This document shows, piece after piece, positions 44,004 through 64,000 of a DNA stretch of 64,000 nucleotides (its first letter is position 1; every line of letters starts with the position of its first letter). The notes below the pieces were generated by a model. That model did not search any database. It was not told where the DNA came from and saw nothing but the letters and a program-made list of their open reading frames with translations. A program made the position numbers and the translations under genes. This DNA is from Spizellomyces punctatus DAOM BR117 (lineage: Eukaryota). Location of the stretch: NCBI GenBank assembly GCA_000182565.2, contig KQ257450.1; one strand, given 5' to 3'.

Positions 44004-44030
44004 TCGACAGCCGATGGGTATTGGCACTAG
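44004..44030 (+). repeat. Fanzor left terminal inverted repeat
   Basis: AGCCGATGGGTATTGGCACTAG is the reverse complement (1 mismatch) of the CTAGTGCCAATACCCACCGGCT segment I recall near the 3' end of the SpuFz1 omegaRNA scaffold (from memory, to be verified). Confidence 0.7.
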
Positions 44031-44116
44031 TACAGTGATTCCAACCAATTGAATCATAATTTTACTCGATTTAGACTCATGAACTATGATTTGATAATGG
44101 TTCGATGCCCAAACGA

Positions 44117-44207
44117 TGCTCCACCATTGAAAAACGGGTCCAATATGTGCGGCAATGAACGGATTGAATATTCTGCAGTTGCTCCACCATTGAAAAACGG
44201 GTCCAAT
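44117..44207 (+). repeat. Perfect 28-bp direct repeat x2 (44117-44144, 44180-44207)
   Basis: TGCTCCACCATTGAAAAACGGGTCCAAT twice, separated by 35 bp. Confidence 0.95.
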
Positions 44208-44224
44208 GCGCAGTTGTCATATCT

Positions 44225-44320
44225 CTATATAAACCTGCCTTCTCTGCCCATTTCCCAGGTTTTCATCATTCTCTGCCGATAGGTTTTCATCATTCTCTGC
44301 CCATTTTCCAGGCTTTCATC
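44225..44320 (+). promoter_or_regulatory. Putative TATA box and tandem pyrimidine-rich 5' repeats of the Fanzor gene
   Basis: CTATATAAA at 44225; AGGTTTTCATCATTCTCTGCC at 44257-44277 and 44281-44301, plus a degenerate third copy, ahead of the ATG at 44342. Confidence 0.5.
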
Positions 44321-44341
44321 CATTTTTCTATTCCAATCATC

Positions 44342-45427
44342 ATGCCGCCAAAGAAAAAGCAAAAGCTTGAAAAACTCGACAAACCCACCTTACATACCTG
44401 CAACAAGACTTCCTTTGCAAAAGCTTTCCTGCCAAACTATCGCCAACAGCTTCTAGATTACATCGCCATCATCCATCAACTCGCCAACCACGCTTCCCAT
44501 GCTCTCAAATTCTACATCCTATCTGCACCAACCTTCACCATGAACGAGGAGACCATCGAAGCGATTCTCTATCTTCTCAACAAGGGGGAGGCTTGGCATC
44601 CAAGAAAGGAAGCAAAGAAGGCATGGCGGGATTGTTTGCTGCCATATGTTCAACGGTACTGCCAAATCGTCAGCTTCGTTCACCCAAATCTACGAGGCGA
44701 GCAGCAATCAGTCAATTACCTGACAGCGAGTATGATGACGAACCTGAAAGTCAACGTTCAAGAGCATTTCATGCAGATGCTCCTTCGGTACATTAATCTG
44801 CGGCTCGACGTGAAGGGACAGAAGCAGCGACTGCCACCAAAAAGCAATGCGCGAAAGGCTTTCTTTACTCGGCTACGCTACTTGAAGTCAGTTTTCCTTT
44901 TTGATGTGGTGCCCGAGTTGGAGTTCCTGGATGACTTGACACCATTGGAGAGCGAGGTTCTTGAAGAGATTTGGTCATTGGATCTCCCATTCCTTCCTAA
45001 CGATCCCCTTGCCTACACCATTGTTGCTGATCCAATGTCATTTTTTCCCGCGTACTGCAAACTCTCTGGGCTGTATGAACAATATGGCTTCTGACGGTTC
45101 AGTGCGATACCTCTGCGCCACTCACTCATTCAAAGTCACGTGTGAATCGACACCATCATCCTGTACCAGCATATCCTTTGCATCATGTGGCGAGATGCAG
45201 AAACTGTCGAAAAGGATGATCTGTGGATGCACGTCTGCAATCTATGTACCAAGGCTTTTCGGTCTCGCTGTGGTATGCATTTTGAAGGCTCGATCACCAC
45301 GGACGGAGCCTCGGTGTCTGTATACCTAAAGCACCCAGAAGCAGACAAGTATGGAAAGCGCAGAGCGAGAAAGTCAGCAAACACGGTGGCTGCAGAGGTT
45401 AAAGCGCTTTATGTGGAGAACAACTTA
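44342..45427 (+). pseudogene. Fz1: Fanzor1 RNA-guided endonuclease (SpuFz1-like), N-terminal ~362 codons, two in-frame TGA stops, RuvC/TNB missing
   Basis: MPPKKKQKL NLS, HTCNKTSFAKAFLP, MMTNLKVNVQEHF, F*RFSAIPL..SLIQSHV*IDT, HFEGSITTDGASVSVYL (Fanzor1 WED motifs); TGA at 45092 and 45143; similarity ends at YVENNL. Confidence 0.92.
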
Positions 45428-46137
45428 CTACAAAGTGAGGCACTGTGGGACAATTTCATCAAAAATATTCCCAGGGAAAAAGTGCCACAGGATAAAACCA
45501 ATGGTAAAAATTGGAAGCTTATGGAAAGTAAAAAATTATGTAGAGACATGTAGGGATGAGAAATGTCCCCATTTTCCTAGCAAGATTGCAAAAAGAATAG
45601 AAATATCCACATGTTTAAATGGCAACATTGGTTTCCTTGTTTACACAAAAATCCACAGAAGATGTAGGCAACTCAGGCGTCAGAACTCATCCCATCTCAA
45701 CATTACCTTCGAGGCATACCAGCCGGGATTGGCCGCTCCGTGCCCGGCATGCCTTCCGGCATATGGCTCTGCACCAGGATCCTCATGTCCGTTCTTCAAA
45801 CGGACTACATCTGCGCCGGCATCTTCCGCCGCTTTTGATGCTACTTTTTTACATGTAGCCCTGGGATTTCGTTTTCTTTCTTCATGCATGCCGGCACGGC
45901 GAGCGGCAAAAGTGGTAGATATGTACTGTTGACAATCATGATGAACGATAGCATGATTTCGACCATGCAAATAGTTTTTTAGTTTATCCAAACATTCATA
46001 GCAGGAATACACAGCGCATTTCAGACATATGCAGAGTTGATATTCTCTAAAGCCTGTACAAGTATCGCAACGCATCGAAACGCGCATTTTTATTATAATG
46101 AGTGGAAGATTATTCAGCGTGCATTTTAAGTACCTTT
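45428..46137. mobile_element. Unidentified AT-rich inserted segment or element terminus
   Basis: Abrupt compositional switch at the Fanzor break; terminal hairpin CAAAGTG-AGG-CACTGTG and dispersed AAWW..CCACAG-like motifs. Confidence 0.5.
45680..46087 (-). CDS. Small Cys-rich (Zn-finger-like) hypothetical protein, 135 aa, intronless
   Basis: MRVSMRCDTC...CICLKC...CYEC...HGRNH; ATG preceded by AT-rich ATAATAAAA. Confidence 0.5.
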   Translation of the reverse strand: MRVSMRCDTCTGFREYQLCICLKCAVYSCYECLDKLKNYLHGRNHAIVHHDCQQYISTTFAARRAGMHEERKRNPRATCKKVASKAAEDAGADVVRLKNGHEDPGAEPYAGRHAGHGAANPGWYASKVMLRWDEF

Positions 46138-46737
46138 TGTAACGACGAGGACGTCTTCGAGAGATCGCGAGTAAGCCCAAATCGGACACGGGAAGCACGA
46201 ATCGCGTGACCAACTCCACCGATTGGGTTACCGCGACCGAAAAAACCGGTTCGGAGAATGGCAATTGGCGCATTAGATTTCAGCGTGCCTCGTACAACCT
46301 GTGGAGGCCCGAGCCAGTGCGGAAAAGGAAGAGATCAGTACCGCCACCAATAAATCAGTTGCGGTGCAGCGACACCCATTAGTTTAGTTTAGTTTAACAG
46401 TTTATCCAAGAATCTTGTATAAAAAGGATGTATTCAATAAAATAAGTCGGGGGCAGAAGCCGTAGCGACACAAAATCCCCATAACTCGCTTCTCAACTCC
46501 AATCTTAGGTTAACAGGAACCTAACAGAGCGCTTCAACGGCCTGATCACCCGTACCGAAGCCTCTAAATCCTGCTCGGTTCACAACTAACCGACTCTCCT
46601 TGCCTCTCGCCCCCAAGTCGCTACCGACGCCCAAAGAAAGGATTCGGAGACTATGATTCCTAGTACGGCCACCCACATAACCTGCTAGGAGACCCAAGTC
46701 GTCTTTACCGTAGTCTACCAACAAAAAATCCGCTACA
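46138..46737 (+). repeat. Gypsy 5' LTR (~600 bp)
   Basis: Begins TGTAACG and ends CGCTACA (imperfect terminal IR); internal TATAAAA and AATAAA; immediately followed by the PBS. No second copy is present to confirm it. Confidence 0.75.
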
Positions 46738-46752
46738 TGGTGGAGAAGCGCG
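46738..46752 (+). other. Primer binding site, complementary to the tRNA-Ala 3' end
   Basis: TGGTGGAGAAGCGCG directly after the LTR CA. Confidence 0.7.
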
Positions 46753-46811
46753 ACGAACCGCCTTCCCCTCTCAAATTCAGCTGAAAACCTTATTCGGTCA
46801 TACCGAAACTC

Positions 46812-49800
46812 TTGCGCAAACCGAGATCCGCTCAGGTAGCTACTCGGAAACCTTTTCTCTCATTTCGGAGACAGAACTTCACAAAACCAAGAATGATGCC
46901 GGTGGAACGCTCACCAACGCGAGGCCGCTCACCTGTGATCCAGACTCGTAGTCAGGGTCCTGCGGAGGACGTCGAAGTCCCTCCCGCAACACGCCCAAGG
47001 CGTTCAGGGACCACTTCCATCGAACCGGAAGCCCCTAACTTGGCCACGATGGCCTCTGAAGTGGCAGCATTAAAAGAAGACATTGCCCGCTCGACTGCTG
47101 CAATGCAGTTGGCAACTCAAAACCTTACGGAACAGCTTCATAGGCTTTCCGAATGTCAGACAGCGGCGGATGAGCGCCTCGCACGAGCCTTAGAAGCCCT
47201 AGCGCATCGCCCGCTGCCTGAACAACCTCCCATAGCACGAGCTACAAGAGAACGGTCCGCAACCCCGTGGGAAACGGCGGACACACCAAGGGAGCGTACC
47301 GAACCAAGTTTTTCAGGTGCGGTGCCTCCAATCCAAGTGCCAGCGGCCCCGTGGGCCAGCGACACCAAGGTCGATTCCTTGAAAGCAAAGGACGTACCCG
47401 AGTTTACGGGCAGAAGAAACCAAGATGTTGAAGAATGGCTTAACAAAGTCCAACTTCTTCAAAACGTTAGCGCAACTTCGGATGCCAGGATGGTACAGCT
47501 CCTACCAGCCATGATAGCCGAGAAAACCCCTGCTGACGCTTGGTTTTACACTCTGGAAGCCCAGGAAACTCGCTCATGGACCTGGAAAAGGTGGAAAGAG
47601 GAACTGCTTCGAGAGTTCCGAGATCCGCTAACCGAGTCCAAGCGCAAAACCGAATATGTGCGCTGCCATGCGAACCCCAAAGAATTTCGCAGCTTTCTCG
47701 CGTTCATCGACCACAAAACTCATCTCCGGCGCCTCGCTTATGGCGACCGGGCAAACATAGAATGTCCCGCTGACCAGCATTTCGACCTAATAGTCGAACA
47801 ATTGCCCAGCGACATCCAAATCATGGTCAAATCCTGTAACGTCACGAACCTGACCAAATTAAAAGACTTCCTGCGCCTTTATTTCGGCTCTGATGACACC
47901 AGAAAACGAGACCCTTGCTACAGCGGTGCTGCAGAAGCTCAGAAGAAGTCACAAAAGACCGGAACTGACAAAGGCCCTAAGCAGACGGCTCCGCATAAAA
48001 CCGGAAACCCCGAAAAGGGTCGCGATGGTCCTCAGAAGATGGTTCCGGACCCCAACAAGGAACCACCGGCACCCTGCAAATTCTGTCAGAAAAAGCATTG
48101 GAATGTTTTCTGCTGGCAGAACGCGAACCGAAAAGATCCTGAAGATGGAAAGAAAGGACCATATGGAGCACCCATGCCCTCAGGTTGGAAACCCAAACAG
48201 GAATCGAAGAAGGCATACATAGTGGAGCTGGACTCGACGTCCGCTACCACCGAGACTCTTTTTTCAGCTTCGGAACTGGAAAGAACGGAAGCCACTAATC
48301 AAGGATTCCACACCATCGGGTTCTTTCATTCACCCAAGCACTCGGAATCAACAATTTTGATGACCGCACCTCTTTCCAAGGTCACGGTGACCAAGGAAGA
48401 GGACCCCCGCACGCCCACGCAGGGCTGGGACCAAGTCTGGGACAACATAGCCATCATCTGGGGCACCCCGCAAGTGGCTCTGATGATGGGCAACAACCCC
48501 CGCGTGCTCAGCTTCTTCGCCAAAGAACTGAAGCGAGGCGCCGGGCACCTCGGGAACGACCCCTACGCAGTCGTGTGGAGTTCCCACCACCTCTACATCG
48601 CTGCCGCAGCCGAAGCTGACAAGGATCGAATCCTGCGAAAGGTCCGAGAAGACGGTACCCCTCGTTTGATTCTCCTTGCCTGGATAAAGCTCGACGAGCG
48701 CGAGAAATTCTTGATGTGGAGCTCTGAAGATCCTGTTATCTTTGATGCGTACGCCAACCTGCAACTGGTGGCATTTCTCCTGACAGGCAATATCGTTCGC
48801 TCAGACTATTATTATCGTCGTGGAAACCCCAAATTTCGGCATGTTAAAGACCATCCACGTCTCCAAAGACACGAAGAGAGCGAACGGACGCGTATAGTCA
48901 TGCTGGCTATCGAACAAGTTGCTCGCCAGAATAAAACAACAAAACCACAAAATGACAAAACTAGAGAACACTTTGAGAGTGTGATCAAGGCTACGGAAGC
49001 AACAATTAATGACATCGCGCCCCATTTCGAGATCGCAGTGCCTTCTATCAACGCCTTCTACTCAGTAGATTTAGGCGATGTACTCAAAAGCCAGACTAAG
49101 ACCCAAACGCAGCCTTGCTGGACGCTAGCCGTCATCGCGCAGCTCTGGGCACCTGTGGTACTAGACACAGGGGCCTGCGAGTCTCTGATTTCCGACACGT
49201 ACCAAGGCCTTCTGTTCTCCGAAACCGATTTGCAGGATGCGGAAACGATGGCTTTCAACGGCATTGGTGGACATATCTCATCTACCAAGACAGTATGCCT
49301 CAAAACTTCCCTCAGAGGCCGCGGCGGAGAATACCTGACTTTCCGCGCCTACTTTCGGGTCATCGCATACGGGAAACCTCTCATCATCCTAGCCAACGAC
49401 GTTTTGGGACATTTGAAACTCCAAACCTTGGTTCAGGAACCCCCGTTACCCAGTTTCGCGGTGACACTCAAGAATCCAGACATCCTTATCCCCTGCTCCA
49501 TAACGGATGAGCTGGATACCGATCACATGCGCGGCACGCCATACAAAACCAAGCAGGGTGAATTCATGAAGGATGTGTCAATGCCACGGCTGACCAAAGC
49601 CAAAGCTCAGAAGTCTAGATTAACCATGTTAATCACGGGACAGATGCGCGTGGCAGCCCAAACTTTCCTCATCGAAAACCCTCTTGATGCCACCGCAGCT
49701 AGCACAACGGCCCCGTTAGGCCTCAAACTGTCCACCGCGACCCATAATTCGGTCGCGGACCCCGAAGAGAACATTTCCGAAGAAGAATGGCAGACACTTC

Positions 49801-52800
49801 GGAACAAATGGAACCTCAACTCTACAGAGAAGGCTCCAGGGGCCTTCGAAGCCCAATTAAAAGACGCGGAACATTTCCACGTCGATCTCAAACGACCCAA
49901 ACCTGTGGTCTGGGCCCTAATCAACATTCTACGACACTTCCATCAAGCCTTCAGCTATGAGGGTCATCTCATAGGGAACTACACCAAGATTCCTTATGCG
50001 CCTCGATTTATCTTGGCTCCGCCACCCCTTTCGAGGCCACGGTCGTACTCTCCGTTGGAGCGGACAGCCCTCGAGACGGAGTGAGACACCATGATGGGGC
50101 TTCAGAGGTGGAAACGAACCACCGAAGTAACCTTCGCCAGCGATCCTGTTATTATTCGCTACGCAGACAAACCCCCGCAGGTAGCCTTCGACTATCGCCG
50201 AGCCAACGACTGCATGGCCTGGGATCCATATCCCTTTCCCATCATGCTCGACATCCTGAACTGGATCGTTGCAGTCCCATTCCGATACATATCGGGAGGT
50301 GACGCAAACAAAGGATTTTACCAAATCGCCATCACTGATACGTCGGTACGCAAATGGCTCGCGATCAGACTCCACGATGGCATCTACGAACCACTTTTCA
50401 TGCCCTTCAGACCCAAGACTGCCCCCTCGCACTTCTGTCGGGTGATGGACGACACCTTGGGTCCCTCCAAATGGCGAAATATCAACAACTTCGTCGACGA
50501 TATCCATACACGAGCGGAGACAGCCGCGGAAGCCCTAGATGCCATCGCAGACTGGCTCGACCGCTTTTCCAGGGCCAAACTCACCCTAAGACTCGACAAG
50601 TGTCAATGGCTCTTTCACCAGCTCACGGCCCTCGGTTTCGTTGCCTCTTCCCAGGGCCTCGCTACCAATCCAGACAAGGTCGCAACCATAGTCGATTGGC
50701 CACGACCTAAATTTATTGGTGACCTATGGTCCTTCGTGGGTCTCCTTGGGTTCTATGCCCAATTCATCCCTCGCTACGCGGAACTCGTCCGACCCCTGCA
50801 AGACACTATCCAAGAGGGCGTTCGTGAATACCGAGACCTTAAAAAGGGTCGCGCTGACCCAAGGAAAGGAGCTGAAAAGCTCAATTCACCGTCCATGCTT
50901 GACACGGCAGTGGCCCCAACAATCACAGCAACCGGAGCCCGATTTGAGGTTTCGCAACATCTTAAATCTAGCTCCTCAGACCTACCGGCGGTCAATCTAC
51001 GCCAATCATCGCTGGCCGACTTGCCCATTGACCCCTTTTGTGTCGGACGCCTTGCTCGCAAGCGCCCCGACCAAGGTCTGCGCAGATTCGTCGCGAAGCG
51101 TGAAGTTTCATGGACCGACTCCCGAAACTCTGCCTTCGCAGCCGCCAAGCAGGCTCTGACAACAGCTCCAGTGCTTGCGGCACCCAGAAAAGGGTTCCCC
51201 TACACCCTTCACAGTGACGCTTCCTACACAGCGTTTAATGTCATGCTCGAACAGTTACAGCCGGATGCTTCTAAACGCCCGCTGTGCTACCATTCCCGAG
51301 GCACCACCACCTCGGAAAAGAAGGCCCCACCTGTCGAACTCGAGGCCGGATGCCTCATTTGGGGCCTCGGAAAACTCCGCCCATACCTCGAAGGCCTGCC
51401 TTTCACGGTCATTACCGATCACCGAGCTCTTTTGTGGCTCGCCAAATACAAAGGCGAGAACCGAAAGCTCCTCCGCTGGGCCCTCGATCTTAGTTACTGG
51501 TCCGAATGGATGACAATCGTACACAAACCAGGACGCTTCCACATAGTCGCTGATACACTTTCGCGGCTACTTGGCGCGGAAACTCTTCTTTGCTCTACCG
51601 CAACCGAAATATGGGTGTTGGAACGCAAAGGATGACGGCCGCGCACCCCGCCAGCCGGTCCCGCACCCTCCTCAACACTGGCAGATGCCATCTTTCGTTT
51701 GGCGTTACAGCCCGCACTCATCACCGCCATCCGCGCTGGCCTCACCGGCCCGCTCCACCCCATCGCCCAACAGGCCCGCACCCTTCTATGGGAGACCAGC
51801 CCCGACACGTACACTACCGCCGACACGCACTTTCTTCAGGACTGGCAATGTGCAGATAACCTGCTGTGGCACCGTTTTTCAGTCTCCAAAGACCTTTGGC
51901 GCCTTTACGTGCCCCCTGCTTGCACCCCTGAGGTGCGCAAGCTTTTTCACGAGGGGGGAGGACACTTCGGATTCGAAAGAACCTACGCTAGAGCTGCAGC
52001 GCAAGTCTGGTGGCCGAAAATGGCACAAGATTTCAGAAAACACTGCGCAGGATGTGAAACCTGTCAACGCTCAAAAAGGGTACCGCAACTGATTCCGGGG
52101 TTGCTGAAACCCATACCACCAGCTCCGGGACGCTGGACAGTCATCACGACTGACTTCGTAACCAAGCTCCCACTTACTTCCAGAGGGTACGACGCCTTTT
52201 GGTTAATAGCATGTAAATGCTCAAAGAGGATCCACGTATGGCCCCTCAAGAGCACTGCGACAGCTATTCAGGTCGCGGAACTCTTTATAGAGCGCTACGT
52301 CCCATTGCACGGCATCCCGGAGACCATTATCTCGGACCGCGACTCCAAATTTACGAGTCGATTTTGGCAGGAGGTCTGCAAAAACCTAAAGATTAATCAA
52401 GAGCTCACCACAGCCTACCACCCTCAAGGTGATGGACAATCAGAAAGAGACAACGCAACGGTCTTGCAGGTCCTTACCACAATGGTCAACACCCGATTAG
52501 ACGACTGGGACACCTTTCTTCCGGTTGCGGAATTCATTATCAACAATACGGTACACGAGGCGACAAAAATGATGCGATTCAGAATGGACCTAGGCTATGA
52601 GCCCCACAATCCACTGGCGGACATCGTCGAAAGGCCGTCAGAAACCAGAAATGCAGATGCGGAGGAGCTCTGTAAACACCTCGGCGACCTAAACATCCTT
52701 ATCCGAGATCTGATGATCGAAGCCCAGGATTCGCAGAAAAGATATTACGATTTATCGCGACGACATTTGGAGTTCCGGAGAGGAGATAAGGTGCTTCTGA

Positions 52801-54371
52801 GCACGAAAAACCTAGCAGGGTATGAGTCCAAGATCACTCCGAAATGGCTGGGACCAGTCACGGTGACCGACTGTAACCCTCTCCGCGACAACTACAAGTT
52901 AAAACTGCCAGACAAGATGAGACGACTTCATCCATGGTTTCACATATCGAAATTACGTCCGTACCAGAAGCCTGTCGACGCCGAAACTGAGGAAAAGGTC
53001 GCGGAAGCACAAGCGGAGGATTCTGACGCTTCAGATGGCGAGTTTGAAGTGGAAGCGATAGTAGACCATCGAACCAGGCGCGGAAAATGTCAATTTCGAA
53101 TACGTTGGTCCAGATACCCACCCCATGAGGATACCTGGGAACCAGAGGAAGCCCTAACAGAGGCTTCCGAAGCCTTAGAAGAGTACTGGAGATCCAGAGC
53201 TCCCACTAGCGCGCTAGTAGAGGACTCTTTGGTAGTCAGCCTTGCAGGCGACGCCCCGGAAGATACAGCTTATGCTTCCGACCACCAATGCTTTGCGGTT
53301 TATCCGGACGATAGCTCACGTGATAATCACGCCCTCTCACCAGAAAGAAAACCAGTTTCGCGTGGCTTACCTCACCAGTCGAGAACGCCACACCAAGCCT
53401 CCCGATCACGCTTACGTGCGTCCGAGCTGTCAAAATCAGCCGGCGACGACCTTAAAAGGACGCCCCTGCACGCTCCCCCTCTTTTTTCTTCTTCAACCGC
53501 CCACGACCTACTTCCCTTACACACTCACTCTGCTTCACAAACCCCTTCTATCGACACCGAAACTAAAACTTCCATTTCTAACACAATGAACACCGATCTC
53601 AGAGGACAAGCAGGAGTGAGCGTACCCTCCACGTACATGTCCGGCTACCCTTGGGAGGAAGACTCGGGCGACTTCGAGGCCGAGGGCGTGCTGGATCGCC
53701 TTGGGGTTGCGATCGCTACCTGGGTTCACTCCTGGGTTCATCAGCTTCGGACCAACCCCAACGCGCCGCTGCAGACTCCAGGGCATGAGTTTTGGCTGGG
53801 AGTCGACGCTCCGAAACCTTACGCGGTGGGCCAGCCCCTCACAAACCACATTGCGGACCCCTACAGCAAGGCCACCGATGGTGGTGAAGCAGCGGTCAGA
53901 ATAGTTGCCGACGCGAAAAAACCCGGAAAAAGAGGGCGCCCAGCTCCGTGCGCCGCTTGGCTCGACCGCGGGGTTCCCCAACACGAGGCGGGAAGCCGAA
54001 AAACGGCTCCATTCACCGATTGGCCGAATGACGACGCCCACAAGTTTGCGTCCACCGTCATTGAAGCAGCTAGGACGGTGCTCCTAAGGACGGCGAACGC
54101 AGCGGAAGCCTCTGCAAGGCTCACCAGACCCCGACATCACGAGCACGCGGAGTACCATTTTCGCGCGACAAACCTGAAAAGGGCCGCGGAGACCTTTACG
54201 GCCCTCTACGTAACCAGAACTGGCCCCGACGTGACCCCGGGTACCATCGTTCGTACCGCAACAGATCAAATCTGGTTTTGTTGCAACGTCGGTGGCCGTG
54301 CCAGTATCATCTGGGTCGTGAACCAAGATGCAGATGAAGCGGACCCCACAGATCCGGTACTGACCTGGTAA
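46812..54371 (+). pseudogene. Gypsy gag-pol single reading frame with two in-frame TGA stops (50082, 51633)
   Basis: ORFs 46812, 50091 and 51699 share one frame. Capsid (PEFTG..VEEWL), CKFCQKKHWNVFC knuckle, VLDTGA protease, RT (DANKGFYQI, MPF, FVDD), RNase H (LHSDAS, TDHRAL), IN (GGHFG..CETC, ISDRDSKF, HPQGDGQSE), GPY/F-like region, chromodomain ~53040-53190. Confidence 0.92.
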
Positions 54372-54384
54372 TTGACGTCCCAAC

Positions 54385-54765
54385 TGTTGGAATTAATTGA
54401 TTGATTTCATCGAAGTTGCCATGGGACGGTAACTTGAATAACTTAGCGAGTTATTAACTTATCGACAAGACCAAGACGGTTCTAGAAAGCCCTGAATCCG
54501 CGCTACAAGCTTGTCAAAACACTTCGTTAGTTAGTTGCTTTATGCGCCCAAAATTAGAGGTCGAAGTCAGGTTGTCATCATGTGATCTGTACTATATTTA
54601 GGACCCCGTTTTTCTTTCTGTAATACAACTCTTTCGCTGCTCTTTCGACACAAAGTCCCCAGAGACGTTCTCTAGCGACGGCATAGCTTCTAACATGGCT
54701 ATCCACCTCTCAGGTGCACCCAGTCTAGTTGTAGGATAACACCTATTTCTCGACTTTCCCCAACA
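54385..54765 (+). repeat. Copia 5' LTR
   Basis: Identical to 59478-59858 except one A/G difference (GTCAAAAC vs GTCGAAAC). Confidence 0.95.
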
Positions 54766-54777
54766 GGTTATGAGCCC
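54766..54777 (+). other. Copia-type PBS (internal half of initiator tRNA-Met)
   Basis: GGTTATGAGCCC directly after the LTR, like the Drosophila copia-type half-tRNA PBS. Confidence 0.8.
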
Positions 54778-54851
54778 TGGTTGCCTGTCAGACAGCTGAG
54801 AACAACGCGAATACGAACTACTGAGCGGTGTATTGAAAAAGGAAGCAAAGG

Positions 54852-57800
54852 ATGCCCCTGGACAGAACACCAGCGCAAAAGGGAAAGAGAAAGATGTCTC
54901 TTTCTGGTCAGTTTGAGGAGATTGAAGAGCACGCCAGAAGGGAAGCTCAGCAAGCTCAGGACGACGACATCAGTAGTTACCTGGAAGCTCAAGACGAGCC
55001 CCAGTACCTCACTCAGGAGTCCTTTTTGGAGTTCAAGGACGAGATGAGGATGTTCAGAAGAGAGCTTCTGAACAATATTCAGGAAGTTTTGGGACAGAGG
55101 ACCCAAACCCAGCCAGCTAGAGCCGCGGAAACACTTCCTACGATGGTGCAGGAGGTGCCATTCAAACCAGAGCAGAACTTGAGGCATAGGGATGCAGATA
55201 TCAAGTCAGAAGGCTCTCGGAGCACATTCTCTCATGAGGAAGAGAAGCAGGTGCTAAAGACTTTGAGGGAAGAAGTCCCTCGCTACCATGGTGGTAGCAA
55301 CACTAATAAGCTGCTAGAGTTTGTGCGCAAACTTGAAGAGTACTTCAGCATAGCAGAACTGCCCCCCAGACTGGAACTGAAGGTTGCCACGTCAAAGCTG
55401 AAGGATTCTGCAGAGGTTTTTTGGGGGAACCACCTCACAGAGGTTGAGGAGGATGATCCAAGGCGAATCAGGACTTGGAGTCAGCTGCGGAAGGCTCTGC
55501 TTGAGCGCTTCACACCCCCAGATTACCAGAGGAAAACTCTGGAGAGACTTTTCGACATCTCTCAGGACACAGAGAACCTCACCATTGTCGAGTTTATTGA
55601 CCAGTTCACCAATCTATCCATGCAAACAATGGTGCTGCATGACGAGGTGATGAAGGTATTATTCCTGCGAGGATTGCGCAAGGATTTGAGAGCCAGCATT
55701 GAGGCAAATCCATCGAACTTGGACAGCATGGAGACGCTCAAATTGGCTGTTTTGAGACTGGAATACATCAACAACCCACGGGTATTCAACCAGTCAAAGC
55801 AAGGGAAGAAAGCTCATGTCAATGCGGCTAAGACGAACCAATATGACGACCAGAAACAGTCCCACAACTCCCAGAGCTATGGAAAGGCGACCAACGGCAC
55901 CAATGGCAAGAAGCAGACGATGCAGAAGACCTGTTTTACCTGTGGGAACCCAGGCCATCTTGCATACCAATGCGCCATGAAGGAGAAGAGCGGGTCGCAA
56001 ACCACTGGAACAGCCAAGGGAGACAGTACAGCCAAGCTGGCTGTGGATAAACAAATGGATGGTCATCAGGACGATGCGAAAGCCATTGCTTTGATTAGCA
56101 GGAAGCTACCACAGCAATCTTACAGCAAGAAGGTCCAATTTATAGTTGATTCGGGCTGTAGCCAGCATATGAGTCCCCACAAAGAACTCTTTGTCAATCT
56201 GAGGCCCATTTCACGACAAATTGTGCTTGCAAATGACGAAGTTATCAATGCAGAAGGCATTGGTACTATCCCCCTGGAGTTGGAGACTCCAGGACAGCAA
56301 CATCAACGGCAGGTGGTGTTGCAGGACGTCCTGTATGCCCCAGAGTTGGGCTGCAATCTTCTGTCTATCAGAGCCATTATTGACAATGGCATGGACGTCA
56401 CCTTTTCGCAGTCTGGAGGAGTGGAATTCCATCTAGATAAGCGATTGTTTGCTGCAGGAAACAGGGAAGGGGAGCTTTACAAGCTTGCTGCTTACCCTGG
56501 CAGCGCGAGCTGTGACTCCCAAGTGATGGGAGCTGAAGTACAGCATGAAGACCAAGCTTTGGGTCGCCCTGAGAAGCAGGATGGCGGGAAACTGAAGCTG
56601 TGGCATCGGCGGTTAGGCCATTTAAGTTATGGCAATTTGAAGACGCTCACCAGTATGGTTGATGGTCTTAATTTTGATGGCAAAGCAGTGGTTGAAGACC
56701 AGCTTTGTGATGGATGTCAGAAGGGTAAACAAACACGATTGCCCTTTCCTGAATCACCCAAGAAGAGTTACCAGCTTTTGGAGGTCATATGTAGCGACAT
56801 ATGTGGACCAATACGCACCAAATCGCTTGGTGGAGCCAGATATGTGCTCACATTCTTGGATCTTGGAAGCAGATATAGCAAATGCTTCTATCTCGACTCG
56901 AAATCAGCGACGTTGTGCCTAGAAAAGTTCAAGGAATTTAAGGCCTGGATCGAGAATCTGACTGAAAGGACGATCAAGGCATTCAGAACTGATGGCGGCG
57001 GTGAGTTTGTGAACCACCAGTTTGATGCCTACCTCAAATCTGAGGGCATCACCCACCAAACTACGACGCGCTATACTCCCCAGCAGAATGGAGCTGCTGA
57101 GAGATTGAACAGGACTCTGGAGGATAAGGTTCGGTCTATTCTGCATGAGAATAACCTTCCCCAGAAGCTGTGGGCAGAAGTCTGGGAATCTGCCAATTAT
57201 TTGAGGAATTTGAGCCCGACCAAGGCGCTGCTGGAGAGGAAGATTACCCCCTCTGAGGCCTTGACAGGGGCGCGCCCTAATGTAGAGCATCTGAGAGCAA
57301 TTGGATGTGTCGCCTACATGCAAATACCGAAGCAACTACGAGGGAAACTGGATCCCACATCAGCAAAGTTGATTCTGGTTGGTTATGGGCAAAATTCACG
57401 ATGTTATCGACTGTGGAATCCCCAGAATGACACCATCTTGGAGTCTAGGGATGTGGCATTTGATGAGACGGTTAAAGGGCAATCTGACGCATGCTCTGAA
57501 CTGATGGGTTCACTTCTGGAAGAAGAAGAGCAGGAGTTCCCTGTGGAGGAGATCCTTGCTGAGGATAAACAAGGCGACGAGACATACTACCTTGTCAAAT
57601 GGAAGGGTTACCCCAGAACTGAGAGTACTTGGGAGCCATTGGAGCATGTCAAGGACACTGTCACACTTGACCTCTGGGAACAGCAGCATTTCCCCAGTGA
57701 TTTGGAAGGAGAAAACAACGATGTTGACGCCTTCCATGCACACCTAGGAACGCCTTCAGGACCCCCCACCACCACCACCACAGATCTGGAGATGCAGCAA

Positions 57801-59447
57801 GAAGGTTTCGGCCATGAAGACCCAAAAACACTTAATGGCGCGCTGCGATCACCCCAGAAAGAAGCCTGGATGCAAGCCATGGAGGCTGAATATGCATCAC
57901 TGGTCGAAAATGGGACGTGGGAAATCATCCCCAGACCCTCTGGAAGGCCTGTAATTGGCAGCAAATGGGTCTATAAAACAAAGCGGAAGACTGACGGCAC
58001 TGTAGAAAGGCACAAAGCGAGATTTGTAGCCAAAGGGTACAGTCAAATCCATGGATTGGACTATGATGAGACCTTTTCACCCGTCATCTCCTTCCCTGCT
58101 CTGTGACTGATCTTTGCCCTGGCAGCAAAGCATGGGCTTTTATTGGATCAAATGGATGTTGCAACAGCATTTCTGAATGGCGAGGTTGATTCAGAGCTGT
58201 ATGTGGAGCAACCCCTAGGAATTTCAACAGAGCACCCACCAGACAAGTTTGTTTGCTTGTTGAAGAAGGGTCTCTACGGTTTGAAGCAAGCTGGAAGGCT
58301 ATGGAACCATACCCTGCATGCGTACCTCCTCGAAAACAGCTTTAAACAGCTGGCGCACGAGCCTTGTGTTTACATTTGGCAAGGGGAAGAGGTTCAGGAA
58401 GCCAAACCACATGAGAAAGATGAGTGCGCAAACATAAACAAATGGCTCATCATACTGGCGGTTTATGTCGATGATCTGGTTATTGCAACCAAGTCAAAAG
58501 AAGACATGAATTGGGTCAAAACGACATTGTCAGCGCGATTTAAGATGCAGGATCTTGGCCCTATCCACCACATCTTGGGTTTAAGGGTAATCAGAGATGA
58601 ACCGCGCAGCATTCTTTCCCTGGATCAAGCACATTACATTGGTGAAGTGCTCAGAAGATTCAAGATGGAAAACTCGAACCCAGTGTCGACCCCACTGGAT
58701 ACCTCTGTTCGATTTGAGGCTCTTGGGTCAAGGCAACCCATGGTAGATAAATCGAAGTACCGCAGTGCAATAGGCAGCTTGATGTTTGCTGCGATTGCCT
58801 CTAGGCCTGACATCAGTACAGCAGTTGGGATACTTGCTAGGCACTGTGAGGCGCCTGGAAACATGCACTGGACGGGCATAAAGAGGATATTTCGGTACCT
58901 GCAAAAGACAGCAAGCTACGGGCTTGTTTATCAGCAAAACAGCGACGATCTGGAAGCCTATTCCGATGCAGATTGGGGTGGAGACCTCTCAGATAGGAAG
59001 TCAACCTCAGGATGGCTTCTCAAGCTATCAGGCGGCGCTATTGCTTGGAAATCTTCAAAGCAGAGATGCACAGCACTCTCCACAGTTGAGGCAGAGTATA
59101 TTGCGGCATCAGATTGTGCACGAGAGGTTATTTGGATGAGAAACCTCTTAGCAGAGCTCGGGTTTTTGGAAGTCAAACAAGGCCCTACTGTGCTCAAAAT
59201 GGATAACAACGGCGCGATGGAACTGGCAAAGAACACCCTGATTTCACAACGGACGAAGCATATTGATATACGCTATCATTTCCTCAGGGAACACATCCAG
59301 AGTGGCGAGATTTCAGTTAGAAGATGCCCCACTCAACAGATGACTGCAGATGTTCTTACCAAGGCAATTCCTGCACCGAGGTTTGCCCAGTGTTGTGTAG
59401 AACTTGGCGTTCAATCACTGGATGACGCAACAAACAAAAGAGCCTAA
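54852..59447 (+). pseudogene. Copia gag-pol with one in-frame TGA (58104)
   Basis: CFTCGNPGHLAYQC knuckle, FIVDSGCSQHM, LWHRRLGH, RTDGGGEF/PQQNGAAER, chromodomain 57534-57683, KARFVAKGYSQ, YVDD, YSDADWGG, KHIDIRYHF. Confidence 0.93.
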
Positions 59448-59477
59448 GAATAGAATGGAATTTTGGGCGAGGGGAAG

Positions 59478-59858
59478 TGTTGGAATTAATTGATTGATTT
59501 CATCGAAGTTGCCATGGGACGGTAACTTGAATAACTTAGCGAGTTATTAACTTATCGACAAGACCAAGACGGTTCTAGAAAGCCCTGAATCCGCGCTACA
59601 AGCTTGTCGAAACACTTCGTTAGTTAGTTGCTTTATGCGCCCAAAATTAGAGGTCGAAGTCAGGTTGTCATCATGTGATCTGTACTATATTTAGGACCCC
59701 GTTTTTCTTTCTGTAATACAACTCTTTCGCTGCTCTTTCGACACAAAGTCCCCAGAGACGTTCTCTAGCGACGGCATAGCTTCTAACATGGCTATCCACC
59801 TCTCAGGTGCACCCAGTCTAGTTGTAGGATAACACCTATTTCTCGACTTTCCCCAACA
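59478..59858 (+). repeat. Copia 3' LTR
   Basis: Preceded by polypurine tract 59465-59477; 381 bp. Confidence 0.95.
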
Positions 59859-62800
59859 GTACCATCATCGTGTACAGGCTATTAGTTGTAGCATTCATTG
59901 GCTGCTTCGTTGCCAGTGCTGTGTTAACAGCATTGTTGTTGTTAGTAACCGTTGTTGTCAATGAAGATAACGATTGACTAATTGGTGCAATATTGTCAAT
60001 TACAAATTTCTGAGTTGCGGCTTCAATGCCAGCAATATAGAGCATTCCGCCAATATAGGCATCGGTCGAAACTCCAAGGCCTCCACTCACAACTAAATTA
60101 CCTGAAGGGTCAAGTCTGAGAACATAACCTTTATCTTGGAATGAAGAGTACAGCCCAAACACTCCAGAAGGTAGGGTTCCATTCGATGAACCAGAAACAT
60201 GGATGCCCCATGTCTGTGCAGTGCTAGTATTGCCTAGAGTAATAGCGGTAGCACTGGGGTTTGAATTTTGTGCCATTAAACCACTTAGATTGAGAGAACT
60301 TGATGGTGAAATCAAGGGTTGATATGCGCTGAGAATTTCATCTTTAGGTACAATCCTGAAAAAACCGCCATTTCCACCCATCAAAAAAGTTCCATCGGCC
60401 GGAGTTAGACTACTTATATTGTCAAGCAAAGGGGATAGGTTTTGTTTACCAGACAAACCTGTTGTTACAAAGGATTCCGTGGCAACTTTGTTCGCATTGG
60501 TGTAAATACTTCCACCAACGTACAAATCCTTTGCTATACCGACACCACCAGGACAAACTAGGGCACCTGTTGTCGAAGAGGTTGATACGGTCGATGCATC
60601 CAGTGTAACGTTTCCAGTTGTTGCTGCAATATTGATTCCACGTGCGCCTTGTGATTGCAACCGAAGAAGACCATCGTCGTTCCTGAGTGTCATGCTTCGA
60701 GCCCCTCCATCCACGGTTCTCGAAGAGCCATTTAGAAAAAGAACACCTGAATTGGCTGAACCATTGTTTAGAAACAGAATTGGACATGCATTATTCCCGC
60801 CGCTGCTGTTCCTTATAACAAGGCTCCTCAGACCATTTACAGGTGAGTTCCCCACTGTCATATCCCCTTCAGTGGTTAGATTTTTCCCAAATGTAGCAGA
60901 CCCATCTGTGTCAATTCAAAGCCCTAATGAGGGCGCACTCGAAGTTCGAGAATATATGTACATAGGCAAATCCTGGGCACCGAGCCATGTTGCAGCACCG
61001 TTGTTGTATCCTAAGAATCCCGTTCCATCAAGACCAAGCCATGAACTCTTAGTTCCATCGAATGTAGAATATGTCATGACCGATGAAGTGCCTGTCGAAG
61101 CCGGAGCAATACTCAATCTGGTTCCGGTGATTACTTTACCACCGATATTGCCTCCAAATGTAACATTGTTTGACGTCAAATTCGTAATCTGTGTTCCTAC
61201 CCATGGTTTAATAACCTCGGTATCATAATCCCGTAGCATCGAGAGGTTAATCGCTTGTTGGGGGTGCTCATATTTGATGGTACGATAGCAACTTGGTACA
61301 TCAAATAGTAATCGAGTGCAGCCTCCAATCGGGTCCGAAGCAATTGCAACATTGCTTCCAGGCTCTAAAGGCGGCATGAAGGTAACAGGGTCGATTGGTT
61401 CGTATACAGGGTTACCTTCACTATCGAGCACAGGTTGCCCTTCTGAATCTCTTTGTACTTTTCGTTCTCTCTGACCACCGAAAATCATTCCCCAAGGAAA
61501 CGTTGAGACGATTGGGAGGATGGAGTTTACAGCCATGGGAACTGTTAACGGTGGCGATACCATTGCTGGAAAGGGTATTGTTGTCAGAGGGGTTGTGCCA
61601 GAGAGGATAACCACATTTCCACCAGGAACATCCATTTTTAACACTTCAGCTGTGTCAGTCTGTTCAGTATTATCGGTATCCCTTTGTTTGGACAATGGTG
61701 TAGGGTCGATGAGGGTAAAGTTATATAGCGGATAACTTCCTGTGATAATCAAGTTGGGTGAATTGGATACAAACTGCGGTGGTATTAAATTGTATGAAAT
61801 CTGGTTCCCAAGAATCAAGACACTTCCGTAAGAATTTGTCGAACCAATGTAATTTCCCTTCAAGGTATCACCCACATGAAGAACGGTATCGCTTCCGGAA
61901 AGGGAACATGAAATCAAGTCTCCGGAAACACTGACACCGTTTATTCCACGTAAGTTTGCAGATAAAACGGCACCATTTTTCTGAAGCCCAATCCCAGCGC
62001 TGATATTGGAACTTAAGACTCCATTGTTGAGAGTTAAATCAGGAGACTGTGCTGTTAAGGATAATCTGAAATCACTGCCAACCCGTGTTATTCCTTGGGA
62101 TGCTGTGAATATATCACGGATTGTATCACGACCTGACATTGCAAGCCCTGAATTCGCATCACATTTCAAACTCAATTGTATATCGTTCTGCAATCTCTCA
62201 ATTCCATTGCTACATGTCAGTACATCTTTTATCGTATCTGCTTTGACCATTTGGAGACAACTACCAGCCTCGGCTTTTAACGATAGTACCACATCGTTAG
62301 TTGTACCAGGTCTAATAGCAACTCCATTAAAATCCTGAAAAATCAGTCCTGAAACAAGTTGATTACCAATGATGCATATGGTCTGGTTATCAACCAAAAC
62401 CCCAATCTCGCGCCGTCCACTAAACTCGGGGCCGATAGCAATTGCACCTGTTTGACTGCCTTGATAATACTGACTCAAGTAGTCCTTGGACACAGCATAC
62501 GAGCCTCCACCGATTGCTGGTAATGTACCGCTCAATTTCACGTTAGGCACTCGTAACTCCTGTAGCGTTGTCGAATAGGTGAATGAAGGACTCCCACTGT
62601 ATCCATAAGTCATGTTACCATACAGTATCTGCTCGTATCCTGGACTCTTCAAAGACAACTTGGAACCGGCTTGACTGAATGTAGAAGTGTCGGTCATGAG
62701 TCGAATGGCAGTCGTATCTACCTCCCCTAAGACGTCTGTGAGTTCAGTCAGAGATGAGAAGCCGAAATCAAGCCAACTGCTTCCGATGTCAAGGATACTG

Positions 62801-63130
62801 TCTGCTCCAGACGATGTCTTTATTGCCCCAAAAGCCTTGAATAGTTGACTTGTATTTGTTTCGAGTTCATCTGAACTGTTCACCTTCAAACTCTTGTGAA
62901 GTTTGACACCGATTCCATTGTCACGATATAGTGGTTTCTTCAGCGTCTCTGGCGGTGGAGGGTCAGGAAAGTTGACAGAGAGTCCGTTTTCGTTTATGAT
63001 AAAACTATCATCTGCCAGTAAACCAATAGTCCTTGTATCTGCATCATGATATAATGGAAACTCGTAATTCAAAGGAACAACTGTCAATTTTCCATTATCC
63101 ACTTTCAATTCATCATCATCAATTTGTATA
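59859..63130 (-). pseudogene. Large intronless viral fibre/adhesin-like protein (>1000 aa), one in-frame TGA at 60916-60918, C-terminus cut by the Copia element
   Basis: ORFs 60916..63130 and 59836..60861 are in one frame (GL*IDTDG); Gly/Ser/Thr/Asn-rich, beta-spiral-like repeats, STSSTTGALVCPGGVGIAKDLYVGG motif. Confidence 0.65.
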
Positions 63131-63513
63131 NNNNNNNNNNNNNNNNNNNNNNNNNNNNNNNNNNNNNNNNNNNNNNNNNNNNNNNNNNNNNNNNNNNNNN
63201 NNNNNNNNNNNNNNNNNNNNNNNNNNNNNNNNNNNNNNNNNNNNNNNNNNNNNNNNNNNNNNNNNNNNNNNNNNNNNNNNNNNNNNNNNNNNNNNNNNNN
63301 NNNNNNNNNNNNNNNNNNNNNNNNNNNNNNNNNNNNNNNNNNNNNNNNNNNNNNNNNNNNNNNNNNNNNNNNNNNNNNNNNNNNNNNNNNNNNNNNNNNN
63401 NNNNNNNNNNNNNNNNNNNNNNNNNNNNNNNNNNNNNNNNNNNNNNNNNNNNNNNNNNNNNNNNNNNNNNNNNNNNNNNNNNNNNNNNNNNNNNNNNNNN
63501 NNNNNNNNNNNNN
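63131..63513. other. Assembly gap (383 N)
   Basis: Run of N. Confidence 1.
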
Positions 63514-64000
63514 ACCCGAGGCTCCCATTGGTAAGTATACCTGTTCCATTAGTTGCAGCGTGGTATGTACCCCAAGAATTACTCGAAGCAGCATTGTTAC
63601 TAATCAGAATGGCCGTAGATGCTGTGGCACTTGAAGGCGCATTGATGACTATGGCAGCCAGCTGCAATCCTCCTCCACCTGCTCCTAGGGTTAGAGTTTT
63701 TCCTATGCCGACTCCACCTGATACCTGGAAAGCACCTGTTGTCACACTAGTTGAATTGGTTGTGTTTGGTATCTGCGTTACGCCTGTATTGGAAACTCTC
63801 AGAACGAAGCCTGTATTGTTATAAGAACTATTTAGACCGAATCCGCCTGCTGATAATGTTCCGTCTCCTGTGCTTCCGGCAACTCTCATGCCCCATGTAA
63901 CATTACTCCCAGTATTTACTAAGGACAATGTTGTAGATGCTGCGCCATTTTGAATGGTTATACCCCTGCCAACAGTGGCACTGTTAAATGATAGCGCAGT
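63514..64000 (-). CDS. Upstream part (or paralog) of the fibre-like protein, open to the window edge
   Basis: TWGMRVAGSTGDGTLSAGGFGLNSSYNNTGFVLRV and TTNSTSVTTGAFQVSGGVGIGKTL repeat motifs found at ~60100-60600. Confidence 0.6.

Follow-up and report, generated by a model that had tools for sequence, protein, structure and literature searches.

A stretch of 64,000 nucleotides from the chytrid Spizellomyces punctatus DAOM BR117 (contig KQ257450.1; G000:C1:770086-834085 in our numbering, hereafter the window) ends, at positions 59859-64000, in intronless coding sequence that resembles a viral fibre. Our analysis points, with good confidence, to the vertex fibre of ~21-kb Polinton-like DNA viruses residing in the chytrid genome, and to an assembly chimera as the origin of what looks like one giant gene. 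Most of this sequence, 59859-63130, very probably belongs to a sister element on another scaffold, C5, and reached C1 by a contig-level misjoin between the two. The features concerned are:

59859-63130, minus strand: central 1,090 codons of a sister element's fibre gene, most likely misjoined; in-frame stop at 60916-60918
61741-62502, minus strand: repeat-rich shaft segment of 254 aa, with a 37-aa duplication and 17-19-aa repeats; predicted intertwined homotrimer
63060-63130, minus strand: 71-nt overlap with a contig end (G000:C5:648354-648424), 70 of 71 identical
63131-63513, no strand: assembly gap of 383 N
63514-64000, minus strand: segment of the fibre gene native to the C1 element (G000:C1:833599-837982), which continues into the gap

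An earlier note, made from the letters of the window, had described an intronless gene of more than 1,200 codons. The coding sequence is intronless and fibre-like, with 1,090 codons before the gap and 162 after it (1,252 in the window), but it is not a single reading frame: an in-frame TGA at 60916-60918 interrupts the first piece, the 383-N gap divides the two, and the nominal frames differ on either side of that gap. The ~17-aa repeats are present in the translation, at ~17-19 aa, as is the 37-aa duplication, whose units begin at 62286 and 62175, 111 nt apart. Two further modules, marked by TTGA and TWG and said to occur twice, are each visible in two copies in the translation, but the second copies sit beyond the gap, in a different paralogue. 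Strict regular expressions recover one TWG and no TTGA motif because the spacing differs by one residue. The sequence had also been called visibly AT-richer, and it is so only mildly (GC of 0.441 for the fibre stretch versus 0.475 for window positions 1-44000).

The C1 element itself runs from window position 45427 to C1:851047, bounded by inverted repeats and by a target-site duplication (TSD), CAACTT. Its left end lies within the window:

44010-45426, plus strand: 5' part of a Fanzor element, with an open reading frame (ORF) from 44342 that has an internal stop; 3' part at G000:C1:851048
45421-45426, plus strand: 6-bp TSD CAACTT; second copy at G000:C1:851048-851053
45427-45832, no strand: left terminal inverted repeat (TIR) of the Polinton-type element; partner at G000:C1:850660-851047
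45833-46137, minus strand: virus sequence adjoining the TIR and containing a portion of a small Cys-rich ORF; 89-97% identical to the equivalent place in sister elements on C9

The TIRs are 99% identical over their first 294 bp and 93.6% identical over 406 bp, and the Fanzor gene continues directly after the right end of the element. Uninterrupted Fanzor copies are numerous in the genome, and 5 of 19 Fanzor loci found by strict pattern match have an empty site with just one CAACTT. A Polinton-type element was inserted into the Fanzor gene and split it, as the earlier note had suspected. SPu-1 Fanzor elements come from the work of Bao and Jurka (PMC3627910). An element on C16 was considered as an insertion at the same Fanzor base and rejected, its insertion being ~100 bp further on.

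Past the window, the C1 element encodes a set of genes expected of such a virus, and A32 ATPase, pPolB, integrase, TIRs and the resumption of the Fanzor, which the earlier note had proposed to look for there, were all found. pPolB (PF03175) lies in two stop-split ORFs at G000:C1:845443-849582 (E 8e-21 and 6e-25), and the rve integrase (PF00665) was matched on C1 (E 8e-17) and C5 (E 1e-8). The A32 ATPase (PF04665) scores above the cut-off (E 1e-6) on a C9 copy, to which the C1 gene is 97.5% identical but stop-split. An ORF of 247 aa beside the ATPase is a penton candidate named from its position and size, with no match in Pfam or PHROGs. The capsid candidate (461 aa) has no Pfam match; by feature comparison it scores 0.97-0.98 to virus clusters, some of which carry double jelly-roll (DJR) or Capsid_N families, with PF21738 in 10% and PF16903 in 24% of the members of two matched clusters. 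It has 46 relatives, mostly of 400-470 aa, and a scan of IMG/VR with the capsid protein returned no relative. The element carries the marks of a Polinton type: pPolB, rve integrase, TIRs with a TSD of 5-7 bp, A32 ATPase and, judged by sequence, a DJR-type capsid. An adenain-type maturation protease is a feature of canonical animal Mavericks/Polintons; no protease family was found among the scanned ORFs of the C1 element, which leave aside a few under ~115 aa. The earlier view of a structural-gene region of an integrated virus extending beyond the window therefore holds for the viral nature of the fibre and for these neighbours, but most of 59859-64000 probably belongs to the C5 sister, and the view that the whole of it is one gene of the C1 element is not supported.

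Related elements are widespread in the genome and fall into types by capsid. Elements with the A capsid lie on C1, C5, C8, C9 (two), C15 and C22, with a further fragment on C9; those with a B capsid lie on C3 (two), C8, C15, C16, C22 and C25, with a deleted copy on C4; a single, distant element is of type C. Sister elements are ~21 kb long, and 6-bp TSDs flank all six A-capsid elements in which both ends were seen. Type B elements have ~45-50-bp palindromic ends followed by tandem repeats (G000:C16:387543 and 411987; C4:355344; C8, C3), and their TSDs are of 5 bp in 3 of 3 clear cases, versus the 6-bp TSDs and non-palindromic ends of the A-capsid elements. Replication modules vary, with pPolB on C1, a superfamily 1 (SF1) helicase on C5 and a D5-like helicase on C16. 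In G000:C5:633875-657749 the capsid genes are of type A, but the helicase is SF1/PIF1-like, ending in a C-terminal HNH, and the integrase is a different one: the element has had its replication module exchanged. The type C element (G000:C2, ~158000-184100) has pPolB-like matches, an ORF that is presumably lipase-like by its motif, and a 1,790-aa fibre with identities of 33% over the shaft and 25% over the knob; its capsid is homologous to the A capsid family (96.9%), and the A and C capsids are 14% identical.

Whole copies of the fibre are ~2,035 aa long, with three open frames of 2,036-2,039 codons and a C3 copy of 2,035 aa. Near-identical proteins occur in Spizellomyces, labelled uncharacterised in the databases, and a second species of the genus has homologues (73%), as does Fimicolochytrium (28%). 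The avian adenovirus fibre family PF06536 scores above the cut-off in the N-terminal repeats of four of five scanned fibre-type proteins (P0001, P0006, P0007 and P0008) and below it in the type C fibre. A search against PHROGs returned only two motif matches of 40-45 aa, and a search of PDB sequences with the shaft profile (A3) gave chance rows only. Peptidase_S74, laminin G and collagen domains were not found in the whole copy P0001; Peptidase_S74 is likewise absent from the type C fibre and present in the partial relative P0056.

In accordance with the trimeric fibre proposed in the earlier note, three copies of the shaft segment at 61741-62502 were predicted to form a homotrimer, with a score of 0.78 (median of three runs) versus 0.00 for the best of three controls. 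The models had a predicted local distance difference test (pLDDT) of 86-89, at least 95% contact agreement between runs, and contacts along the whole length. With proteins from microbes, 21 of 30 solved pairs came up to the mark and none of 23 single chains did; with those from eukaryotes, the counts were 17 of 29 and 0 of 30. Contacts recur about every 18-19 residues, and from this period and the contact pattern we infer that the shaft would be a triple beta-spiral.

The C-terminal ~120 aa, modelled from the C5 copy with a pLDDT of 63, are predicted to fold like a trimer knob of the TNF/C1q kind. The best structural match was the C-terminal domain of Pgp3 (Z 10.5, root-mean-square deviation 2.9, 114 residues aligned); C1q (Z 9.6), BclA (8.8) and PRD1 P5 (7.7) were also matched, and nearly all of the highest-ranking structures were trimers of the TNF/C1q type. 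FasL and CD40L led the Foldseek matches, phage and giant-virus fibre tips led those in BFVD, and the Atlas offers needle-knob, C1q and BC2L-C clusters at 0.87-0.88 as tentative pointers. Among the 14 matches to the knob none lies on C1. A trimeric shaft with a terminal knob is the architecture of the adenovirus fibre, and a trimeric shaft with a jelly-roll knob, as predicted here, is also found in PRD1 P5, the Sf6 tail needle knob and the C-terminal domains of BclA and Pgp3. TNF-like spikes differ from the present fibre in sequence (6-16% identity), and the protein described here is several times longer.

Two knob variants, 55-58% identical, are present in both capsid types (A2 alignment of 14 fibre tips), and may correspond to two receptor specificities. 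Two proteins on contigs of 16-21 kb, P0007 and P0056, share the shaft or repeat modules but have discoidin (F5/8 type C) or Peptidase_S74 domains. A metagenome locus (L167, one locus of 311 shaft pattern matches) was rejected as a bacterial-looking repeat protein near a cyclase-like gene.

Several points weigh against the identification of a viral fibre. The pieces inside the window have no Pfam match, PF06536 included. The high trimer score may come from likeness to fibres already solved; the alignment was unused, and the test was calibrated on two copies. The knob model is moderate and comes from C5 rather than from the window, and a Z of ~10 is not much above that of a common beta-sandwich. 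As for the capsid candidate, its single-sequence model (pLDDT 29) is too poor for a fold to be read, and its profile (A1) gave chance rows only against PDB sequences.

The capsids of types A and B are homologous but 13% identical, and their pentons (26%), ATPases (25%) and integrases (21%) are similarly far apart. The first 110 aa of the fibre cannot be aligned between A and B, and the N-terminus tracks the capsid type in all 14 A/B elements where it was seen. The shafts behave otherwise. Among 13 of the 14 close shafts (the comparison omits C15:33500-34132, whose length differs, and the type C shaft), mean amino acid identity is 91% between A and B, 90% within A and 92% within B, and A-B pairs reach 98.9% in nucleotides. 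Nearest neighbours change between thirds of the shaft, and C1's own fibre is 97-100% identical to a type B gene on C3 over ~2.4 kb. These patterns show a patchwork exchange of fibre DNA between the capsid lineages by recombination. Exchange of receptor-binding genes between viruses sharing a host is known from mosaic phage tail-fibre genes and from adenovirus fibre recombination; here, the partners differ from phages and adenoviruses in being co-resident eukaryotic proviruses with 13%-identical capsids.

We propose that the viruses integrate through an rve integrase, with TIRs and a TSD of 5-6 bp, and reside within other mobile elements. The capsid-type-specific N-terminal ~115-130 aa of the fibre would dock on the penton; adenovirus-fibre-like repeats, a predicted homotrimeric shaft and shuffled repeat modules make up further parts of the protein, and the ~120-aa knob would bind the host-cell surface, probably a glycan on the wall-less zoospore. 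The two capsid lineages exchange fibre DNA yet keep their own N-termini, the presumed anchors, and such exchange would be favoured because all types meet and infect one host. The fullest form of this model, in which unrelated lineages of one chytrid host, with three replication modules and two capsid types, share one recombining trimeric fibre of ~2,000 aa that a swappable N-terminal adaptor fits to different pentons, a TNF-like knob recognises a zoospore receptor, and proviruses are steered to silent islands founded by Fanzor elements and chromodomain retrotransposons, is tentative, and we think it somewhat more likely to be wrong in part than right throughout.

The fibre could instead bind a helper giant virus, in a virophage-like mode of entry, rather than the fungal cell. 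Giant viruses of zoosporic fungi exist (PMC13533422), and some Polinton-like viruses (PLVs) depend on giant viruses (PMC12220804). Silence in culture would also fit induction by a helper: among 26.4 million records from a single RNA run (~6% of it), just 27 reads fell on L021:300-10000, mostly on the long terminal repeat (LTR), and 26 of 30 bins were empty, in a stretch that had no host gene as control. The elements appear silent. Conversely, PLVs with their own fibres have been read as entering the host independently (PMC12220804; bioRxiv 10.1101/2022.07.28.501842), and we consider a helper-binding fibre unlikely.

Equally doubtful, in our judgement, is that the elements now spread only as intracellular transposons, with gene conversion among resident copies homogenising a relic fibre. 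Stops or insertions are found in many copies, the empty RNA bins fit this explanation as well, and near-identical patches could arise by chromosomal conversion. However, when the window shaft was compared with 12 other copies, the proportions of differing sites were 0.66-0.82 at synonymous (pS) and 0.09-0.14 at non-synonymous (pN) positions in 12 of 12 comparisons, which points to strong past purifying selection on the fibre. Synonymous sites are saturated while the protein remains 85-89% identical. Furthermore, the three long frames of ~2,040 codons are open, the N-terminus follows the capsid type, and homologues occur in other chytrids, all of which speaks against a relic.

Two retrotransposons are nested in the virus on C1, ahead of the fibre pieces:

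46138-54384, plus strand: chromodomain Gypsy in the virus, 5' LTR at 46138-46737, 3' end cut by the Copia
54385-59858, plus strand: chromodomain Copia, LTRs at 54385-54765 and 59478-59858, nested as assembled

The Copia has a chromodomain after its integrase and a Ty3-type capsid match. In the window it is flanked by two unlike pentamers, CCAAC and GTACC, and a 99.5% identical copy on C5 bears the same two crosswise; among 27 matches, only the C1 and C5 copies have LTRs of at least 99% identity. Beyond the C5 Copia the fibre resumes at the exact codon where the window piece ends, as in uninterrupted sisters, and reaches the knob; the end that the Gypsy lacks on C1 is found on the opposite side of the C5 Copia. 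The far end of the window piece matches the C5 contig end at 70 of 71 nt, whereas no other locus retrieved exceeds 83%. Identity to other copies is only 70-83% for each of three pieces (C5 5', window, C5 3'), whereas the fibre native to C1 shows 92-93% to the copies nearest to it. As assembled, there are two shafts on C1 and none on C5, while each of 12 other elements has one. The segments swapped between C1 and C5 would each reach from a Copia copy to the next gap, past which the scaffolds regain the order fixed by their TSDs (CAACTT on C1, CTCGAG on C5). Because of the crosswise TSDs, the overlap and the shaft counts, we assign 59859-63130 to the C5 element with considerable confidence, the misjoin having run through the two Copia copies. 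The earlier note had named a misjoin at the gap as a ground for refutation; this largely applies to the gene, but not to the viral nature of the DNA.

Against this assignment, there are no reads that span the Copia (5.5 kb), and the 8 of 70 rows inspected include no loose read end at 63130. The C5 contig end lies 0.94 kb from the Copia in the scaffold, where a swap predicts ~3.2 kb, a shortfall of ~2.3 kb, and one of the 71 overlap letters differs. LTR-LTR differences (0-2 of 381) do not separate a swap from no swap. The gap length and the differing letter would speak for a correct assembly, in which a real exchange between Copia copies, or tandem fibre genes, placed a C5-type piece in C1; ectopic recombination between near-identical LTR elements also swaps flanks. 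Yet both scaffolds regain the ancestral order past their gaps, with CAACTT and the Fanzor halves on C1 and CTCGAG on C5, so that a second, non-colinear exchange would be needed, hidden in both gaps. In addition, none of the 12 other elements has two shafts, and 19 loose read ends at 63514 (one DNA run) continue C1's own gene in full agreement, like the whole C3 copy, although these may stem from close paralogues. A real rearrangement is, on balance, improbable. It is not mutually exclusive with helper binding or a converted relic, nor are those two with each other.

An explanation by loss of the fibre 3' end, through recombination of two Copias at one locus, was dropped once the C5 flanks were found crosswise. 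The C1 and C5 Copias differ at 25 places, of which 20 are packed into 400 bp at 57064-57470 and 16 are transitions at CpG, a pattern that fits methylation-driven decay and may perhaps reflect conversion or a further assembly mosaic.

Finally, although TNF/C1q folds and Ser/Thr/Gly-rich repeats occur in cellular adhesins, a host adhesin gene or contamination is ruled out by gene context to the point of being barely credible: the fibre is intronless, all 14 close shafts are located in capsid-encoding elements of the same genome, and DNA reads labelled with the same species cover 30 of 30 bins.

All 15 A/B elements with an examined flank (C1, C3 twice, C4, C5, C8 twice, C9 three times, C15 twice, C16, C22 twice) are situated within other mobile elements; direct matches show this for 13, and nearby pol genes suggest it for two. 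The flank on C25 is in a gap. Four of the 15 lie directly in Fanzor genes, at different sites (P ~1e-5 under random insertion, assuming 1% Fanzor content and leaving selection against genic insertion unmodelled). Either targeting or selection may yield this pattern. The C1 integrase lacks a chromodomain and the C16 integrase has one, by Pfam scan. Of note, the Gypsy family at 46138-54384 has a Fanzor flank in 11 and a virus flank in 6 of 30 LTR loci (30 of 40 LTR matches; these are LTRs, not independent insertions), and Fanzor loci appear to be starting points for nested chromodomain elements. Transposable elements of S. punctatus are reported to carry H3K9me3 and H3K27me3 (bioRxiv 10.1101/2025.03.17.643675).

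Chytrid PLVs with fibres have been published before; what is new here is the assembly misjoin and the predicted folds. Six midsize dsDNA MELD viruses from one Powellomyces dataset join adenovirus-like fibres to varied replicases, a superfamily 1 helicase among them (Starrett et al., 2021; PMC8502044). They resemble the chytrid elements described here in combining fibre genes with pPolB or other replicases (pPolB on C1, SF1/PIF1-like on C5, D5-like on C16), a likeness by description only, and the MELD section of that paper does not treat fibre architecture, the sharing of near-identical fibres between capsid lineages or insertion into mobile elements. One integrated PLV was reported in S. punctatus (Bellas and Sommaruga, 2021; PMC7805220), with no mention of a fibre in the main text, whereas we find at least 15 A- and B-type elements. 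The capsid of their 'S. punctatus group' (supplement row 174, double jelly-roll) resembles by eye the type C capsid on G000:C2; the A capsid is distant at 14% identity to type C. A preprint reports further PLV ATPases in chytrids (10.64898/2026.06.19.733378). Long PLV fibres are known from Gezel-14T/PgVV, whose Ltf was found in virions, and from cryptophyte PLVs; like the present fibre they are described as the longest gene, modular, and bearing avian-adenovirus-fibre repeats (PF06536), and nested retrotransposons that break PLV fibre genes are reported in the same sources (10.1101/2022.07.28.501842; PMC12220804). Unlike them, P0001 is without Peptidase_S74, laminin G or collagen and its tip is a predicted TNF/C1q-like knob. 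We found no publication on fibre sharing between co-resident PLVs or on PLV insertion in Fanzor genes, though bioRxiv supplements may list such elements.

The striking size of the window gene is mostly an assembly artefact, though true copies are larger still, and a misjoin of this kind would mislead annotation towards a giant or tandem fibre gene. Fungal viruses are, for the most part, regarded as having no extracellular stage of entry. That at least 15 integrated chytrid elements carry a fibre under purifying selection, its tip knob-like, argues that these elements were infectious particles. The knob is a concrete candidate for a ligand-binding domain in a chytrid genus that is reportedly transformable. 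A fibre shared across 13%-identical capsids is a clean eukaryotic case of host-range module exchange and, if true, the zoospore-receptor model would give DNA viruses of fungi a defined extracellular route of entry.

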